Origin: a virus
Taxonomy: Duplodnaviria; Heunggongvirae; Uroviricota; Caudoviricetes
Strand: one strand, 5' to 3'
IMG/VR virus record: IMGVR_UViG_2706794670_000010
Length of the DNA stretch: 9,346 bases
Position 1 is the stretch's first letter, and each line of letters begins with the position of its first letter. The notes beneath the pieces were generated by a model that did no database searches, had not been told where the DNA came from, and worked only from the letters and a program-made list of their open reading frames with translations. A program made the position numbers and the translations under genes. Shown here piece by piece: positions 1 to 9,346 of this stretch.

Positions 1-103
1 GGGACGGAAGTCGCTGTCGTTCTCAAAATCGGTGGAGCTGCATGACAAAGTCATCGGGCATTATCTGAACATAAAACACTATCAATAAGTTGGAGTCATT
101 ACC
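1..103 (+). mobile_element. IS1 insertion sequence, right (3') end; element continues left of the window
   Basis: Bases 1-103 match the IS1 3' region as I recall it, ending in the terminal inverted repeat ...ATCAATAAGTTGGAGTCATTACC at base 103. Orientation is the same as the IS1 end at 9264-9346. Confidence 0.85.
2..88 (+). CDS. insB: IS1 transposase InsB, C-terminal fragment (5' part outside the window)
   Basis: Frame 2 reads ...GRKSLSFSKSVELHDKVIGHYLNIKHYQ then TAA at 86-88, which is the InsB C-terminus. It lies inside the IS1 right end. Confidence 0.75.
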   Translation, partial: GRKSLSFSKSVELHDKVIGHYLNIKHYQ

Positions 104-2918: not shown

Positions 2919-3593
2919 ATGGCTAACGCCTGGCTCAGATTATGGCATGACATGCCAAATGACCCTAAGTGGCGAACAATTGCCAGGGTGTCAGGGCAGC
3001 CAATTGCAACAGTGATGGCAGTGTATATCCACCTCCTGGNNNNNNNNNNNNNNNNNNNNNNNNNNNNNNNNNNNNNNNNNNNNNNNNNNNNNNNNNNNNN
3101 NNNNNNNNNNNNNNNNNNNNNNNNNNNNNNNNNNNNNNNNNNNNNNNNNNNNNNNNNNNNNNNNNNNNNNNNNNNNNNNNNNNNNNNNNNNNNNNNNNNN
3201 NNNNNNNNNNNNNNNNNNNNNNNNNNNNNNNNNNNNNNNNNNNNNNNNNNNNNNNNNNNNNNNNNNNNNNNNNNNNNNNNNNNNNNNNNACAAAATGGCG
3301 ATTGTCACGGCGCGTCACGAAATGTCACGCACATGTCACGACGAGTCACGACAGATACAGATAAAGATACAGATAAAGAAGATCAAAACACTATGGTCCA
3401 TGGCGTAAAAAACGCCACGAACCAGGCAGGGGATGTTCAGACCGTCAATCCTGGTCAGCCAGCAGGCTCGACACCGGAAGCCGATTCAGCGTATGCGCTG
3501 AAAGCCGATTCGGGCGCTGTGCAGCAGGTGATGACCGCAAGGCCGGAGCAATCACTCCAACTGCAGCAGCCTGAAGCCGATTCCGCCATTCAG
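2919..3593 (+). CDS. phage replication initiator (O-like / replisome organiser), partial: interrupted by masked run 3040-3289 and running into masked run 3594-3859
   Basis: ATG at 2919 is preceded by GAGGTGAG. The N-terminus MANAWLRLWHDMPNDPKWRTIARVSGQPIATVMAVYIHLL is typical of phage replication-initiator N-domains. The frame stays open through the visible stretch 3290-3593, which holds the iterons and a low-complexity linker. The true 3' end is not visible. Confidence 0.6.
3040..3289. other. N-masked run (250 nt), sequence unknown
   Basis: Run of n characters. ORF-track proteins crossing it are X-filled and uninformative. Confidence 1.
3304..3377 (+). repeat. candidate replication-origin iterons inside the initiator gene: GTCACG x5 phased at 10-11 bp (3304, 3314, 3324, 3335, 3345), then 12-bp direct repeat GATACAGATAAA x2 (3354-3365, 3366-3377)
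   Basis: Read directly from the sequence. Helical-period phasing of a short motif followed by an A-rich stretch inside the initiator gene parallels the lambda arrangement, where ori lies within O. The upstream extent is hidden by masking. Confidence 0.55.
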
Positions 3594-3859
3594 NNNNNNN
3601 NNNNNNNNNNNNNNNNNNNNNNNNNNNNNNNNNNNNNNNNNNNNNNNNNNNNNNNNNNNNNNNNNNNNNNNNNNNNNNNNNNNNNNNNNNNNNNNNNNNN
3701 NNNNNNNNNNNNNNNNNNNNNNNNNNNNNNNNNNNNNNNNNNNNNNNNNNNNNNNNNNNNNNNNNNNNNNNNNNNNNNNNNNNNNNNNNNNNNNNNNNNN
3801 NNNNNNNNNNNNNNNNNNNNNNNNNNNNNNNNNNNNNNNNNNNNNNNNNNNNNNNNNNN
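3594..3859. other. N-masked run (266 nt), sequence unknown; hides the end of the initiator gene and/or the start of the helicase-loader gene
   Basis: Run of n characters. Confidence 1.
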
Positions 3860-3898: not shown

Positions 3899-3919
3899 NN
3901 NNNNNNNNNNNNNNNNNNN
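3899..3919. other. N-masked run (21 nt)
   Basis: Run of n characters. Confidence 1.
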
Positions 3920-3921
3920 CT

Positions 3922-4386
3922 GACGAACTGATGACCGGGTGCACGAATTTTGTGTTCAGCGGTAAAACCGGCACCGGGAAAAATCACCTTGCAGCGGCGA
4001 TGGGTAACCGGCTGATGGCGAAGGGGCGCAGCGTGATTATCGTCACCGAGTCTGATGTCATGAGCGTGTTGCATGACAGCTACGACAACGGCAAATCCGG
4101 TGAAAAATTTTTACAGGAGCTTTGCGGGGTTGATTTGCTGGTCCTGGATGAAATAGGCATTCAGCGGGAGACGAAAAACGAGCAGGTGGTATTGCACCAG
4201 ATAATTGATCGCCGGACAGCATCACTGTGCAGTGTCGGGATGTTAACAAACCTGAATCATGCCGCAATGAGCACGCTTCTTGGTGAGAGGATTATGGACC
4301 GCATGACCATGAACGGTTGTCGGTGGGTGACGTTTAACTGGGATAGCTGGCGTTCAAATGTCAGCTTTCCGGGAGTTGTGAAGTAA
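3922..4386 (+). CDS. DnaC-like helicase loader (IstB-like AAA+ ATPase), C-terminal ~155 aa visible; 5' part lies in masked sequence
   Basis: Walker A FSGKTGTGKNHLAAA and Walker B LLVLDEIG, and the visible stretch follows my recalled DnaC sequence closely. The frame is open upstream into the N-run, and ATG at 3931 would sit only 10 residues before the Walker A, so the real start is upstream. Stop at 4384-4386. Confidence 0.8.
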   Translation, partial: DELMTGCTNFVFSGKTGTGKNHLAAAMGNRLMAKGRSVIIVTESDVMSVLHDSYDNGKSGEKFLQELCGVDLLVLDEIGIQRETKNEQVVLHQIIDRRTASLCSVGMLTNLNHAAMSTLLGERIMDRMTMNGCRWVTFNWDSWRSNVSFPGVVK

Positions 4387-4407
4387 TTTTTGTTGGAGGA
4401 TGTTTTA

Positions 4408-5133
4408 ATGGAAACTGTATTTGACGCACTGAAAGCACTGAAAAGAGCCTCTTCACATGTGGTGGCGTCCCGCCTTGGAATCAGCCGTGAAGATGCGGTC
4501 AACGAACTGTGGAAACTGAAGCGCCGTGGTGAAGCGGATAACAAGGGTTCGATGTGGTGGCTGATTCAGGCTGGTGAAAGTGAACCAGTGTCACCGGTAC
4601 CGAAAGTGACAGCGCAAATGCTGACTGAGGCGATTGAACAACATGGCCCACAAACGGCGGATGAGCTGGCACTGATGTTCGGGATTACCTCCCGCCGGGC
4701 GAATTCATCGCTGGCCATGGCAATCAGCAAAGGGCGTCTGATTCGCGTGAATCAGGGCGGTAAATTTCGGTACTGCATACCGGGCGCTGATTTACCGGCA
4801 GAGCCGAAAGCCGCATCCATAGCGGAAACGGATGGTAAAGTCTTTCCTCAGCCAGCAGGTGTTGCGTTACCGGTACAGGAAGCTGCAACACAGGAAGAAA
4901 TTAAAACAGAAACTGTGGCGGACATTGTGCAGTCGTTGCCATCGTTCACCGAAACGCAAGCGGATGACCTGGTTTTACCATCGCTGCATATGGCAAACCG
5001 CGAACTGCGTCGGGCGAAAAGTCATGTCCAGAAGTGGGAGCGTGTCTGCGCCGCGTTGCGGGAGCTGAACAAGCACCGGGATATTGTTCGACAGATTGTC
5101 GATTCCTCCGGTCGTATTGTGTCGGAAAAGTGA
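4408..5133 (+). CDS. hypothetical phage protein, 241 aa, two tandem winged-helix-like segments plus acidic linker and helical C-terminus
   Basis: GGAGGA lies 7 nt upstream of ATG 4408; the ORF-track start at 4390 is a TTG. Segments [22 protein letters not shown] and [28 protein letters not shown] look like wHTH recognition regions. Family not identified. Confidence 0.6.
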
Positions 5134-5148
5134 TTGCCGGGGGCGCTT

Positions 5149-5571
5149 ATGGCAAAAGTATTTACACAGGAAGAGCGGGAAAAAATTAAGGGGCAGGTTG
5201 TTGAACTCGTACGCCAGAGTGGGCGCGAGACGTTACGACAACTGGAAGCTAAAACCGGGGCGACAAGATATTTAATAAGCGTTCTCGCCAGAGAGCTGGT
5301 TGCCAGTGGGGATGTATACAACTCTGGCTACGGGTTATTCCCGTCTGAACAGGCTCGTAAGGACTGGCAAAACGCCCGCAAAAAACTCTCGAGGGCAAAG
5401 CTGAAGAAACCATCTGTGGTTGATCCGGACCTTATCTGGTCATTACCGGACGGAGAAATACGCCGCTACGACAGACATCAGAACATAATCTGTCGCGAGT
5501 GCCGGAAGAGTGAAGTTATGCAGCGTGTACCGGCTTTCTATCAGGGTGATTTTCAGGAGGCGGTACTGTGA
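5149..5571 (+). CDS. hypothetical protein, 140 aa, N-terminal winged-helix-like segment, C-terminal CxxC
   Basis: ATG at 5149 is preceded by GGGGG (5-nt spacer) and follows the previous stop by 15 nt. Contains ETLRQLEAKTGATRYLISVLARELVASGDV and CRECRK. Confidence 0.55.
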   Translation: MAKVFTQEEREKIKGQVVELVRQSGRETLRQLEAKTGATRYLISVLARELVASGDVYNSGYGLFPSEQARKDWQNARKKLSRAKLKKPSVVDPDLIWSLPDGEIRRYDRHQNIICRECRKSEVMQRVPAFYQGDFQEAVL

Positions 5572-5985: not shown

Positions 5986-6124
5986 TCAAGGTTATTTCTG
6001 GAAGTCAAGTCGTGAGTGATGAGGACTAACAAATACGGTGAACTCGATAAAGAGATTCAGGACGAACTGGAGGCCAGGAATGATTGACAAATCACCAAGT
6101 GAGTTCAGCTACAAAGATTTATTG

Positions 6125-6140
6125 TCATAACGGGTTATGA
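6125..6140. promoter_or_regulatory. perfect inverted repeat TCATAAC-GG-GTTATGA upstream of the methyltransferase gene (possible operator or RNA hairpin)
   Basis: Read directly from the sequence, 60-110 bp upstream of the candidate methyltransferase starts. Function is not established. Confidence 0.2.
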
Positions 6141-6199
6141 GATCGACTTGGTGCGTGATATTCTTCGGGCCAGTTTGCTATGCGCCACCATGAGATGTT

Positions 6200-8032
6200 A
6201 TGGCCCGCATGTTTGATACATTAGGATTTTACATTATGAATGTGCAACATTTTGATTTTTTTACAGATAATGAGTTTTCTAATCTGGAAAGATATCAAAC
6301 TTGTAAAGCCATGGCCAAAGGTTATGCGGGCAATTACAAAACCGGGCAGTCAAGGTTGATGCATGCCCGCTCATACTGCTTCAGCATCGTAGCTGCATAT
6401 TGGGATACCCTTGCAAAAAAGCAAAAAAGCAGCATTAAAATGAGGGCAGTACCGCACACTGTTTACATAGAAGACATTCCATGTGATGCACGCGAGCTCG
6501 CTGAACGAACAGGTGAGCTTATTGCTCAATTTCCGGCGGAGGACGCTGGATATCTGATTGGGTCAATTTATACGGTAATGCTGCCATCCGCTTACCGTTC
6601 GGAATTGGGGGCTTACTATACCCCCCCACCTTTGGTAGCGCGTCTCTTGGACCTGGCTGAAAAGTCTGGTGTTGATTTTTCTCATGCATCGGTTATTGAT
6701 CCTGCGTGTGGTGGCGGTGCATTTTTGGCACCAGTAGCCATTCGAATGTTAAAAAAAGACAAGGGGTCTTCCCCTGAATGGATGTTGAGGAGAATCAGTC
6801 GTCGTTTAAAGGGGATAGAGATCGATCCATTTGCGGCTTGGATGAGTTTGGTATTGCTCGAATCTGTACTAATGCCACTATGTGTAAAGGTAAAACGTAG
6901 ATTGCCTGAAGATACAATTATTGTTGCTGATGCGCTTCAGCAAGATAAATTTTCTGGTTATGATCTTGTGGTAGGGAATCCGCCTTACGGACGTGTCACT
7001 CTCGATATTAAAACGAGAGAAAAATATTCTCGTTCGTTATTTGGTCATGCAAATCTATATGGATTGTTCACCGACTTAGCTGTTCGCATGGTTAAAGAGA
7101 AAACAGGAGTTATTGCATTTCTTACGCCAACTTCTTTTCTTGGTGGGCAGTATTTCACCGCGCTGCGAACCCTTTTGACCGAAAAAACTACTCCGTATGC
7201 CCTTGATTTCGTCACTGACAGGGATGGGGTCTTTGACGATGTTCTCCAGGAAACAATGTTGACAGCATTCAAGGCGGGAGAACATAAAGTTCGGGCCCAG
7301 GTATCCTCACTTGTCCCTAAGGGGTTGAACAAAGCAAAAATTGAGAAAATAGGTAATGTTGATATAGAAAAAGGTGGAGCAACGTGGCTTTTGCCACGCG
7401 TTAAAGATGATGCCTGTTTTCTTAATGTATTAAAACAGATGTCTACGCGTTTAGCTGATCTGGGATACTCAGTCTCTACAGGTCAGTTAGTCTGGAATCG
7501 ATTTAAGTCGCAGTTGCGTACGACGAAAGGAAAAAATAGCTACCCATTAGTCTGGGCGGAATCAATAACTTCAGCTGGTTTTCGTTTTAGTGCAGACAGA
7601 AAAAATCATGTTCCCTATATCGATATAACCCCACAACAGGGTTTCCTTGTGACAAAATCTGAATGTGTGCTTGTTCAGCGGACAACATCGAAGGAACAGG
7701 ACAGAAGGATTTTAGCGGCAATTTTACCTCAGGGATTTATAGATGAAACTGGTGGCGTAGTAGTTGAAAACCATATTAATATTGTATATTCAAACGGATT
7801 GTTCTCTGCGGTTCGCCCTGATGTTATTGATATGCTACTTAATTCGCATGTTGTCGATCGGGCGTTCAGGTGTATAAGCGGAAGTGTTGCTGTTTCGGCC
7901 TATGAATTGAATTCAATCCCGTTGCCTTCTCTGGAGCAGGTGATGGAGATTCAATCGTTAATTGATGCTGGCGTCCACAGACGGATTATTGAGAGAACTA
8001 TCGCTGGTTTCTATGGAGTGATGATTGCATGA
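6200..8032 (+). CDS. gamma-class N6-adenine DNA methyltransferase (Type II R-M modification subunit), 598-610 aa
   Basis: Motif order YYTPPP (motif X), then DPACGGGAFL (motif I, AdoMet binding), then VVGNPPYG (motif IV, NPPY), then a long C-terminal target-recognition region. Start is ambiguous: ATG at 6200 or 6209, or ATG at 6236 with AGGA 9 nt upstream. Stop TGA at 8030-8032 overlaps the next ATG. Confidence 0.85.
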   Translation: MARMFDTLGFYIMNVQHFDFFTDNEFSNLERYQTCKAMAKGYAGNYKTGQSRLMHARSYCFSIVAAYWDTLAKKQKSSIKMRAVPHTVYIEDIPCDARELAERTGELIAQFPAEDAGYLIGSIYTVMLPSAYRSELGAYYTPPPLVARLLDLAEKSGVDFSHASVIDPACGGGAFLAPVAIRMLKKDKGSSPEWMLRRISRRLKGIEIDPFAAWMSLVLLESVLMPLCVKVKRRLPEDTIIVADALQQDKFSGYDLVVGNPPYGRVTLDIKTREKYSRSLFGHANLYGLFTDLAVRMVKEKTGVIAFLTPTSFLGGQYFTALRTLLTEKTTPYALDFVTDRDGVFDDVLQETMLTAFKAGEHKVRAQVSSLVPKGLNKAKIEKIGNVDIEKGGATWLLPRVKDDACFLNVLKQMSTRLADLGYSVSTGQLVWNRFKSQLRTTKGKNSYPLVWAESITSAGFRFSADRKNHVPYIDITPQQGFLVTKSECVLVQRTTSKEQDRRILAAILPQGFIDETGGVVVENHINIVYSNGLFSAVRPDVIDMLLNSHVVDRAFRCISGSVAVSAYELNSIPLPSLEQVMEIQSLIDAGVHRRIIERTIAGFYGVMIA

Positions 8033-9111
8033 ATCTGCCTGTTGTTCCCCCATTGAATGTTATCCGGGAAAGATTACAATTAATTTTCCCTGAAGGGACT
8101 GAGAATCGTGGATATTTAATTCGGGAAATAGCTGCAAAAACAATTTTTGTCATGTTTTATGCTGGTGCGGTTGAGGGGCTGGGGCGATGGATAAGGCCCA
8201 GCCAGGTTGTAAGTATGGGAGATTCGCAGGCTGCTCTTACTGATGATGCGTCCAGAGAAAGCTGGGTAAAGATGACTTTCTCTAAACAAAAGATAAGGCC
8301 TGCTGATGCATGGTATGCGGAAAATACGCGTGAGCCAATACGTGATGAAACTATAAAAAATGGCCTAATACCTTGCAATGCAATTGTTGAGCGTAAAGGT
8401 ATACCCACCACATCCTCTCGTCCTCGTTACAGTTTGAATCGCTCTTTTGCAGCACTCTTTGATGCCGGGCTTGAAGGAGATTCGCTGCTGAGTGCAATAA
8501 GTTCCTGGCAAGAAAATCATTTGAACAAAGCCGCTCTTGCTAGGTTGCGTTTATTGAAATCAGGGGCAGTGATTGCTGCTGATGCCGTAGTCGTCACTTT
8601 CCCAAATGGAGAGAAGAGAACTTTAGCTCCGGGCCCGTCAAGTACAATAGCTAAGGCCGTCATCGAAGTTTTTGCTCCTAATTTTCTTAAGAATCCAACT
8701 GTGCTCTGGTTGTCTGAATCCGGGAATAAAGTTGTTGCTCAGGATGATGTATTGGCAAAAGCATTGGGGCTGAATATTGATGCCTCAAAAGCACTTCCAG
8801 ATATTATTTTGATTGATTTGGGAGAGGACCGAACGGGTTCGGACATGCTTGTAGTTTTCACTGAAGTAGTTGCGACAGATGGGCCTATAAACAGGGAACG
8901 AAAAGTTACTCTCACTCATTTGGCTATTGACGCTGGGTTCAGCGAGAAAAATCTTGCATTCCTTACGGCATTTATGGACAGAAGTGCTCTGCCTTTTAAA
9001 AAGGCAATACCAGAATTGGCGTGGGGATCTTATGCATGGTTTGCTTCTGAACCGGAGCACTTAATTGATCTTCGGGATGGTTATCCGGTAAAGATCAGCC
9101 AGAGAAAATGA
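8029..9111 (+). CDS. putative Type II restriction endonuclease partner of the methyltransferase (possibly BsuBI/PstI-like; family unverified), 360 aa
   Basis: ATGA start/stop overlap with the methyltransferase and GGAG 10 nt upstream indicate translational coupling. Same AT-richer composition as the methyltransferase. I could not locate an unambiguous PD-(D/E)xK motif by eye, so nuclease identity is inferred from context. Confidence 0.55.
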   Translation: MNLPVVPPLNVIRERLQLIFPEGTENRGYLIREIAAKTIFVMFYAGAVEGLGRWIRPSQVVSMGDSQAALTDDASRESWVKMTFSKQKIRPADAWYAENTREPIRDETIKNGLIPCNAIVERKGIPTTSSRPRYSLNRSFAALFDAGLEGDSLLSAISSWQENHLNKAALARLRLLKSGAVIAADAVVVTFPNGEKRTLAPGPSSTIAKAVIEVFAPNFLKNPTVLWLSESGNKVVAQDDVLAKALGLNIDASKALPDIILIDLGEDRTGSDMLVVFTEVVATDGPINRERKVTLTHLAIDAGFSEKNLAFLTAFMDRSALPFKKAIPELAWGSYAWFASEPEHLIDLRDGYPVKISQRK

Positions 9112-9263
9112 CCAAAGTTTGATATCCGCCACGCCCTGAAGGATGGGGGTTTTACGGTGCACTGGATAAAAAATCGGTTTCATAGATTTGCCCACCGTGG
9201 TATACGCCTGCGATAAAAACTTTATTGTCATCAACGGCAAAAGCAATAATTGTTCTGTGGCGG

Positions 9264-9346
9264 GGTGATGCTGCCAACTTACTGATTTAGTGTATGATGG
9301 TGTTTTTGAGGTGCTCCAGTGGCTTCTGTTTCTATCAGCTGTCCCT
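9264..9346 (+). mobile_element. IS1 insertion sequence, left (5') end; element continues right of the window
   Basis: GGTGATGCTGCCAACTTACTGATTTAGTGTATGATGGTGTTTTTGAGGTGCTCCAGTGGCTTCTGTTTCTATCAGCTGTCCCT matches the IS1 left terminal repeat and insA leader as I recall them. Same orientation as the IS1 end at 1-103. Confidence 0.85.
9319..9346 (+). CDS. insA: IS1 InsA, N-terminal fragment (GTG start; continues beyond window)
   Basis: GTG GCT TCT GTT TCT ATC AGC TGT CCC translates to (M)ASVSISCP, the InsA N-terminus. Confidence 0.7.

Follow-up and report, generated by a model that had tools for sequence, protein, structure and literature searches.

Introduction

To our knowledge, all characterised members of the BsuBI/PstI family of restriction systems (PstI, BsuBI, EcoGIII, SdaI and SbfI) share a CTGCAG core in their target. 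Besides such a site, a Type IIP system of this family is expected to cut with a 3' TGCA overhang and to protect its own DNA by m6A. In SdaI (PDB 2ixs; CCTGCA^GG), an N-terminal winged-helix domain is joined to a C-terminal nuclease domain of the PD-(D/E)XK-variant type. A prophage-borne system of this kind is M.EcoGIII/R.EcoGIII of the Stx2a phage of E. coli O104:H4, found also in O145:H28 strain RM13514; for this system, modification of CTGCAG by the methylase and activity of the endonuclease have been demonstrated (PMC3893438). Temperate phages are known to carry defence genes at fixed hotspots, such as the P2 gpA-gpQ locus and sites in P4 satellites, and the gpA-portal site of P2-like prophages is documented as a defence-system hotspot (Rousset et al. 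2022, PMC9122126).

Here we describe a restriction-modification (R-M) pair in a stretch of 9,346 nucleotides, called the window below. Like the Stx2a-phage system (our loci L093 and L094), the pair belongs to the same Pfam families, has the methyltransferase gene (M) before the endonuclease gene (R) with a 4-nt overlap, and is cargo of a lambdoid prophage in E. coli/Shigella. However, the identity is only 25% for M and 26% for R, the Stx2a-phage proteins are shorter (489 and 317 aa as compared to 598 and 360 aa), and the Stx2a-phage system adjoins cI in the immunity region whereas the present one occupies a slot in the nin region. R shares with SdaI the domain architecture and the PD...ExV..GP and YA..RE..R blocks, but the two are 26% identical, about 95 additional residues at the N-terminus of R stay unaligned, and SdaI recognises an 8-bp site. 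As for the P2/P4 hotspots, homologues of the cassette occupy the P2 gpA-portal site itself, while the copy in the window has a comparable variable position in a lambdoid prophage, where sister phages carry alternative cargo; here the slot is found between the DUF977/118-aa genes and parDE, and the prophage is a non-inducible remnant. It is very probable that the region from about 6077 to 9116 is a self-contained Type IIP R-M cassette of the BsuBI/PstI family and forms accessory defence cargo of an IS1-bounded lambdoid remnant.

The locus and its prophage

The features discussed are the following.

1..103, + strand: right-hand end of IS1, bounding both contig and remnant on the left; matches the final 103 nt of three IS1 copies of S. 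sonnei CP104423.1 at 100% identity
5629..5985, + strand: last conserved backbone phage gene before the cargo, encoding a 118-aa hypothetical protein; reading frame open from 5572
5990..6076, + strand: left junction sequence, from blastn breakpoints
6127..6235, + strand: conserved non-coding leader of the cassette, from conservation across lambdoid copies
6156-6164, + strand: candidate extended -10 promoter TGATATTCT, from conservation only
6222-6226, + strand: Shine-Dalgarno sequence TAGGA, invariant among the upstream regions compared
6236..8032, + strand: M gene, gamma-class N6-adenine DNA methyltransferase, 598 aa, from Pfam, PADLOC and motifs
8029..9111, + strand: R gene, Type IIP restriction endonuclease of the BsuBI/PstI family, 360 aa, from Pfam, PADLOC and the SdaI match
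9112..9151, no strand: intergenic stretch of 40 bp from the R stop to the parE stop; homology ends at 9116 (Kluyvera) and resumes at 9166 (sister prophage L002)
9152..9263, - strand: 3' remnant of a RelE/ParE-family toxin gene, 36 codons and stop, cut by IS1
9264..9346, + strand: left inverted-repeat end of IS1, right boundary; its 83 nt match the left ends of other IS1 copies at 100% identity

The window matches Shigella sonnei chromosomes at 100% identity. In NCBI both exact proteins, M and R, already bear names and are assigned to S. sonnei; the exact R protein is indexed in 4192 blocks of assemblies. The host prophage is a decayed, non-inducible lambda-like (lambdoid) remnant of S. sonnei, 9.16 kb (about 9.2 kb) in length between two IS1 copies, and it is kept in all S. 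sonnei chromosomes examined. In E. coli the cassette is present in 2 of 5426 complete genomes. GTDB species representatives scanned with R gave only relatives of 68% identity or less. The R-M pair as such is an ordinary, already annotated two-gene defence cassette.

The slot is a variable position of the lambdoid prophage, bounded by its replication/nin genes and by the genes parDE-DUF968-RusA-Q. On a finer scale its flanks are the DUF977/118-aa genes on one side and parDE on the other. The 118-aa protein has a weak zinc-ribbon match and is called a hypothetical protein in E. coli loci L001 and L002.

The methyltransferase and endonuclease genes

The earlier note had read the cargo at 6000-9263 as a Type II R-M pair, and this identification is borne out by Pfam, by PADLOC, by the match of R to SdaI and by the M-then-R tandem. 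Of 80 homologous loci, spread over alpha-, beta- and gamma-proteobacteria, 78 have kept this tandem. The open reading frame 6200-8032 matches the Pfam families Eco57I (51 bits) and N6_Mtase (38 bits), and M matches the PADLOC model MTase_II PDLC03338 nearly end to end (996 bits). Motif I (DPACGGGAF) is followed by NPPY and by a C-terminal target-recognition region, the order of a gamma-class N6-adenine methyltransferase such as adjoins the endonuclease in BsuBI/PstI-type systems. Among solved structures M.TaqI comes closest. With the methylase that acts on CTGCAG in Stx2a phages M has 25% identity (E 7e-27), and the alignment runs through the C-terminal target-recognition region. Translation from the alternative start, ATG 6200, would give 610 aa; 6236 is probably the start because of the N-termini of homologues, a 1-nt indel between both ATGs in Kluyvera, and existing gene calls of 598 aa.

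R has two Pfam domains, each with a cut-off of 27 bits. The N-terminal helix-turn-helix (winged-helix) recognition domain PF17728 (BsuBI_PstI_RE_N) covers residues 10-172 with 106.6 bits (1.2e-30), and the nuclease domain PF06616 (BsuBI_PstI_RE) residues 188-349 with 152.2 bits (9.3e-45). The PADLOC model REase_II PDLC03589 matches nearly end to end (426 bits); PADLOC thus holds near-full-length models for the exact subfamily of both proteins. In the NCBIfam search M had sub-threshold matches only and R had no family-level model. By sequence, residues 96-349 of R match the SdaI crystal structure 2ixs with E 1.8e-16. The residues P257-D258...E279-x-V281...G285-P286 are invariant across R, SdaI and the Stx-phage enzyme, and the same is true of the block Y96-A97-x3-R101-E102-x2-R105 of the N-terminal domain. 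The first ~95 residues align with neither enzyme.

The AlphaFold2 model of R has moderate confidence (pLDDT 66). A fold search with it returned SdaI as the sole significant match, with poor superposition (TM 0.25) because the model is weak; therefore the model was not used for mapping recognition residues. At the lysine position of the PD-(D/E)XK motif SdaI has EAVK, the Stx-phage enzyme ESVT and R EVVA. We considered whether the missing lysine marks R as inactive and rejected this, since the lysine is absent even from the biochemically active Stx-phage enzyme.

Organisation, selection and expression of the pair

The M stop and the R start overlap as ATGA at 8029-8032, as had been noticed from the sequence before, and the 4-nt overlap is found also in the Kluyvera and Citrobacter copies. 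In the cross-genus comparison dN/dS is 0.056-0.062 for both genes at dS of 1.2-1.45, which indicates that both are under purifying selection. S. sonnei is a young clone, and therefore identity among its genomes is uninformative on selection within S. sonnei. In one locus (L085) the M gene is split beside an intact R; other genes are split in the same assembly and therefore a sequencing or assembly error is likely.

A spacer of 215 bp had been reported upstream of the pair. The gap is real, although it measures 214 bp (from 5985 to ATG 6200) and part of it is the cassette's conserved leader. Neither this gap nor the space between M and R contains a controller (C-protein) gene, with no open reading frame of at least 50 aa, so the pair is not of the C-protein-regulated class, which has a small HTH controller gene. 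The leader is 92, 89 and 81% identical in three other lambdoid-borne copies, as compared to 81, 79 and 76% in the coding region; upstream of the leader, identity is about 50%. A common element, TGnTAT(T/G)CT, is found in 7 of the 8 upstream regions. The leader may hold the cassette's own promoter, which would allow expression from the repressed prophage. This promoter is proposed from conservation only, because a sigma-70 consensus scan of the spacer gave no match and no -35 element was visible. Folded as RNA, the leader (z = -0.77) does no better than shuffled sequences and therefore no structured RNA is claimed; an Rfam scan of the window gave no match.

These observations bear on whether the cassette works at all in S. 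sonnei. It could be sequence-intact but silent or inactive, carried along by a dead prophage, still there only because the clone is young, and without a present role in defence or addiction. The prophage is indeed an IS1-bounded remnant, the promoter scan was negative, one assembly has a broken M beside an intact R, and the scarcity among E. coli genomes means that the cassette is not broadly favoured in the species complex. On the other side, both reading frames are full length with intact catalytic motifs, dN/dS across genera is 0.06 for both genes, the cassette carries its own conserved leader, and the broken M comes from an assembly whose other split genes suggest errors. We regard a silent passenger as quite unlikely and an active R-M pair as the better reading.

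Recognition sequence

By analogy with the characterised enzymes, CTGCAG or a site that contains this core is the most likely target of the pair. This is a prior and not a result, because the enzymes whose specificity is known are only about 26% identical. A literature search on the S. sonnei methylome and BsuBI-type systems found no experimental or methylome data specific to the cassette. CTGCAG occurs once in the window (at 3561) and not in the cassette, but about two occurrences are expected in the window by chance and the difference is not significant. In 1.3 Mb flanking the 80 homologous loci there is no avoidance of CTGCAG (O/E 0.89, rank 47 of 64 palindromes). It is known that avoidance of the site is not a general rule, and its absence is therefore weak evidence.

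The system may be an active member of the PstI family while the clade with the 360-aa and 598-aa proteins recognises something other than CTGCAG, either another palindrome with a TGCA core or a longer site, as SdaI does. R is equally distant (26% identity) from the CTGCAG enzyme of Stx2a phages and from the CCTGCAGG enzyme SdaI, the first ~95 residues of its recognition domain align with neither, two specificities already exist in the family, and CTGCAG is not avoided around the 80 homologous loci. Against this stand the CTGCAG core common to the characterised members named above, the YA..RE..R block that is invariant with both reference enzymes, and the alignment of M with a CTGCAG methylase through the target-recognition region. 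A deviating target deserves weight but is doubtful, and a CTGCAG-based site is preferred. It is unlikely that two things hold jointly, namely that this widespread clade has a recognition sequence new to the family and that the leader acts as a controller-protein-independent timer of M before R in a new lysogen. The timer reading touches on the leader being more conserved than the coding region among the lambdoid copies.

The cassette as accessory cargo

The claim that the pair is cargo in a prophage is upheld by two lines of comparison. In the sister prophage of E. coli strain 135 (L002), homology to the window ends at 5989 and resumes at 9166, and the same slot holds 1159 bp with three small genes unrelated to the cassette (DUF7167 and two hypothetical genes). 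Thus the pair lies between conserved phage genes at a place where relatives have other genes. The left junction 5990..6076 is missing from this sister prophage and by blastn it is not conserved in the Kluyvera and Citrobacter cassettes.

The same cassette is also found in unrelated phage backbones, with homology limited to the cassette. It is present in lambdoid prophages of Kluyvera and Citrobacter at 79-81% nucleotide identity and in another lambdoid prophage (L099). Nucleotide homology to the Kluyvera/Citrobacter copies is confined to 6077/6127-9116, stopping at 9116 for Kluyvera, and the flanks are about 50% identical. Homologues of 75-76% amino acid identity are placed exactly in the gpA-portal hotspot of P2-like prophages (Serratia, L103), and in a Klebsiella island the cassette lies beside ScoMcrA-like nucleases. 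A DNA search of 50,697 phage records gave no match, and the protein search only the distant Stx-phage system. Judging by these breakpoints, the R-M pair is swappable accessory cargo of the prophage.

Prophage-borne PstI-like methylases give strain-specific methylomes in EHEC (PMC3893438), and the main role of the present methyltransferase could likewise be epigenetic gene regulation, as proposed for M.EcoGIII of the Stx phage, rather than defence. The intact overlapping endonuclease, which is under the same purifying selection as M, and the location in phage defence hotspots both argue for restriction; regulation would then be a by-product. A mainly regulatory role is very unlikely, and we retain restriction as the main one.

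Base composition was part of the initial argument for cargo and it turns out to be weaker than stated. The GC content is 43.8% for 6000-9263 as compared to 48.3% for the rest of the window (N excluded), so the cargo is AT-richer as the earlier note had said. The 60-nt lines in 6200-9111 have a mean of 43.8% (range 26.7-61.7). Backbone lines had been put at 55-62%, which is overstated: their mean is 48.3% and 19% of them reach 55% (Mann-Whitney against the cassette, p = 7.5e-4). The contrast is strong against the replication/nin genes (52.1% GC, p = 4e-6) but does not reach significance when the comparison is with the prophage's own immunity side (46.1% GC, p = 0.13). GC3 is 0.36-0.37 in M and R, 0.53-0.64 in 3931-5571 and 0.33-0.40 in the immunity genes. 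Among the other hosts, cassette GC is below that of the flanks in six of seven and equal in the seventh; for example, it is 0.43 versus 0.50 in Kluyvera/Citrobacter and 0.41 versus 0.53 in Erwinia. The GC contrast is modest.

Truncation of the prophage at IS1

R ends at 9111 and IS1 starts at 9264, which agrees with the 152 bp reported between them. This interval is not empty, since it consists of the 40-bp intergenic stretch and the parE remnant. The translation of the remnant is identical to the C-terminus of an intact 103-aa toxin in E. coli FDAARGOS_943, where parD is next. After the same R gene that strain has retained parE-parD, DUF968, RusA, Q, lysis and head genes. The IS1 copies of complete S. 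sonnei chromosomes are 768 bp long, and the right one is flanked by GTTCTGTGGCGG and CATATAACAAAA with no target duplication, which indicates deletion or IS1-IS1 recombination and not a simple insertion. Chromosomal ydfI lies 48 bp past the right IS1, in the order ydfI, ydfZ, ydfH, ydfG, dcp. Taken together, the sequences indicate that the prophage is truncated at the right IS1, which is the endpoint of a deletion that removed the rest of the prophage, and the truncated right edge proposed earlier stands. The left-boundary IS1 has a 9-bp target duplication, AAACGGTTG, in some strains and a leftward deletion in others.

Two directly repeated IS1 copies might also form a composite transposon. 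This candidate was rejected, as the flanks do not pair as target duplications; deletion is the simpler reading.

Proposed working and meaning

Roles in phage defence and in addiction, and a methyltransferase made first for safe establishment, are standard inferences for R-M systems. In S. sonnei the conserved leader with its extended -10-type promoter would give a single M-R transcript. The 598-aa gamma-class methyltransferase would be made first and would N6-methylate adenine in the target. Ribosomes ending at the M stop would reinitiate at the overlapping ATG of R, so that no endonuclease would be made without translation of M. The winged-helix N-terminal domain of the endonuclease would recognise DNA, and the C-terminal PD...ExV nuclease domain, as in SdaI, would cut incoming DNA that is unmethylated. 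If the cassette were lost, decaying methylation and residual nuclease would result in post-segregational killing. Such killing could help to explain why the IS1-associated deletion ends 152 bp beyond R, and possibly it was addiction to the cassette that fixed where the IS1-driven decay of the S. sonnei prophage stopped.

The significance of the finding is limited and it leaves current understanding unchanged. It adds one more defence cassette that moves between lambdoid and P2-like prophage hotspots. An R-M pair together with toxin-antitoxin modules may delay the decay of a prophage that is already dead. An intact PstI-family restriction system, rare in E. coli, is apparently present throughout the epidemic clone S. 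sonnei. It probably gives the clone an m6A methylation mark of its own, and it would probably hinder transformation of S. sonnei, its uptake of plasmids and its infection by therapeutic phages.

Gene content of the restriction-modification cassette

The stretch, a remnant of a decayed lambdoid prophage of Shigella sonnei, carries a methyltransferase gene (M) followed by a BsuBI/PstI-family endonuclease gene (R), which together are called the cassette.

Features of the window (+, forward strand; −, reverse strand)
1-103: right end of an IS1 oriented like the one at 9264
1046-2080, −: PaaR2 (HTH)-PaaA2-ParE2-type module, immunity side of the remnant
3040-3289 (250 nt), 3594-3859 (266 nt) and 3899-3919 (21 nt): runs of N
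6127-6235: non-coding leader, with the extended −10-like TGATATTCT at 6156-6164
6200-8032, +: ORF 1 (M), 610 aa, Pfam Eco57I and N6_Mtase methylase families
8029-9111, +: ORF 2 (R), 360 aa, Pfam BsuBI_PstI_RE_N and BsuBI_PstI_RE, both halves of the endonuclease
9264-9346: left end of another IS1 copy

R matches its two Pfam families with E-values of 1.2e-30 (BsuBI_PstI_RE_N) and 9.3e-45 (BsuBI_PstI_RE), and both scores exceed the curated cut-offs by a factor of four to six. PADLOC-DB models extend over almost the full length of each protein (996 bits for M, 426 bits for R), and the NCBI names of both are already correct. These matches, together with that to the SdaI structure and the exchange of the slot in a sister prophage described below, bear out in outline the earlier note, which had read the region as R-M cargo; the ATGA overlap at 8029-8032, the R stop at 9111 and the IS1 start at 9264 are likewise exactly where it had placed them. 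The M-then-R tandem recurs in 78 of 80 homologous loci across Proteobacteria, and an ORF scan of the window found no controller-protein gene in the cassette. With dN/dS of 0.056-0.062 for both genes, at dS 1.2-1.45, M and R are by this measure under strong purifying selection.

The most probable start of M is 6236, for a predicted protein of 598 aa: the homologues begin there, an invariant TAGGA Shine-Dalgarno sequence stands 9 nt upstream, and in the Kluyvera copy the interval from 6200 to 6236 contains a 1-nt indel. The 109 nt 5' of this ATG are 92, 89 and 81% identical among the lambdoid copies, as compared to 81, 79 and 76% for the coding sequence, and beyond this leader identity is at background. 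TGnTAT(T/G)CT, an extended −10 promoter form, is common to seven of the eight upstream regions. We infer from this conservation that the cassette brings its own candidate promoter. A consensus promoter scan of the upstream spacer found no promoter, and the predicted RNA folding of the leader was no better than that of shuffled sequences. Also within the leader are two short upstream ORFs, which vary in length, and a Dam site at 6141.

Proposed mechanism and specificity

The only significant fold match for R is the endonuclease SdaI (PDB 2ixs), with which it aligns at E 1.8e-16. R also aligns, at 26% identity, with the BsuBI/PstI endonuclease of an Stx2a phage. Two blocks are invariant in all three enzymes: Y96-A97...R101-E102...R105 in the N-domain and P257-D258...E279-x-V281...G285-P286 in the nuclease domain. 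In M, motif I precedes NPPY and the nearest structure is M.TaqI; the CTGCAG methylase of the Stx phage aligns with M through the C-terminal region of M (25% identity, E 7e-27). For the Stx-phage system, CTGCAG methylation and an active endonuclease have been shown (PMC3893438). Given these alignments, the M.TaqI match and the demonstrated activity, a classical Type IIP R-M system is the best-supported reading of the cassette. M would then protect host DNA by m6A methylation, while R, its translation coupled to that of M, would cleave unmodified incoming DNA. The expected target would be CTGCAG itself or a site with this core, which at about 26% identity to the reference enzymes is a prior only. 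A pooled test of the DNA flanking 80 homologous loci gave no signal of CTGCAG avoidance (O/E 0.89). Defence and addiction would be the standard roles to assign to such a cassette.

The prophage remnant and its IS1 boundaries

Proteins identical in every residue to M and R are listed as Shigella sonnei proteins in the public collection, whose index places R in 4192 assembly blocks. Complete S. sonnei chromosomes, CP104423.1 among them, match the window at 100% identity. Among complete E. coli genomes only 2 of 5426 carry the cassette. In one S. sonnei assembly, GCA_040189005.1 (L085, 8209-10004), M is split into ORFs of 133 and 428 aa and R is intact. This split is likely a sequencing error since other genes are also split in that assembly; a genuine M-minus R-plus strain, if real, would argue for an inactive R.

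In gene order, the remnant carries DUF1391, the three-gene toxin-antitoxin module, a cro-like gene and YdaT, followed by an O-like replisome organiser, a DnaC/IstB-like loader, DUF1627, DUF977, a 118-aa gene, M and R. In CP104423.1 the N runs correspond to 253, 332 and 302 nt, respectively, so lengths are not preserved and the O-like and DnaC-like genes seem truncated in the window; in the real genome they are whole (354 and 248 aa).

Since both of its edges are IS1 ends, the window is a contig of a draft assembly, delimited by IS1 on either side. Some S. sonnei strains have the left IS1 as a simple insertion, with the 9-bp duplication AAACGGTTG; in others it is the endpoint of a further leftward deletion that extends to a molybdopterin oxidoreductase gene. 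The right IS1, in complete S. sonnei genomes, is without a target-site duplication, and 48 bp past it stand ydfI, ydfZ, ydfH, ydfG and dcp, the chromosome of the Qin site. The proposed truncation of the right edge at IS1 is therefore correct, and this edge reflects an IS1-associated deletion, not a simple insertion. E. coli FDAARGOS_943 has the same M-R pair in a full prophage (99.9% nucleotide identity over the cassette region searched), followed by parE-parD, DUF968, RusA, Q, tRNAs, lysis and head genes. Of the 152 bp between R and IS1, 40 bp are spacer and the remainder is the last 36 codons of a parE toxin gene on the minus strand, identical to the FDAARGOS_943 protein and cut by IS1. The R-M pair is thus flanked by two ParE-family modules, one intact at 1046-2080 and one with a destroyed parE at 9152-9263. 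Separately, at 9233-9263, megablast matches to the IS1 copies of many E. coli genomes already begin 27-41 nt ahead of the inverted repeat, with an overall identity of about 92%, which suggests some similarity among IS1-flanking sequences at unrelated sites.

The cassette as exchangeable cargo

Homology to a sister prophage of E. coli strain 135 (L002) ends at 5989 and restarts at 9166, the slot holding instead DUF7167 and two small hypothetical genes. At 79-81% nucleotide (86-89% amino acid) identity the cassette is found in lambdoid prophages of Kluyvera, Citrobacter and another enterobacterium, each time between replication genes and DUF968/RusA/Q and with different immediate neighbours; nucleotide homology is limited to 6077/6127-9116. 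Remoter copies (72-76% amino acid identity) occupy the interval from gpA to the portal gene in P2-like prophages, whose gpA-gpQ locus has been described as a defence hotspot (PMC9122126), or are found in a Klebsiella island beside ScoMcrA-like nucleases. Just past the R stop, the 53-nt stretch 9119-9171 is 88.7% identical to L002 13821-13872, which is non-coding and lies between tRNA genes and late genes; one possibility is that it serves phages as a module boundary in mosaic recombination.

The claim that the cargo is AT-rich held in part. GC is 43.8% in 6000-9263 versus 48.3% in the remaining window, and by 60-nt lines the cassette differs significantly from the whole backbone (p = 7.5e-4). 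The difference is strong against the replication/nin genes (52.1%, p = 4e-6) and not significant against the prophage's own immunity side (46.1%, p = 0.13). GC3 agrees with this pattern. The backbone value of 55-62% did not hold up, being reached by only 19% of backbone 60-nt lines. Cassette GC was below its surroundings in six of seven other hosts checked and equal in the seventh.

Relevance

The cassette belongs to a known kind that is already catalogued, and PstI-type R-M cargo on E. coli lambdoid prophages has been published (PMC3893438); the literature searched yielded no paper on this S. sonnei R-M system. In practice the cassette matters for the genetics and methylomes of S. sonnei and for phage therapy.
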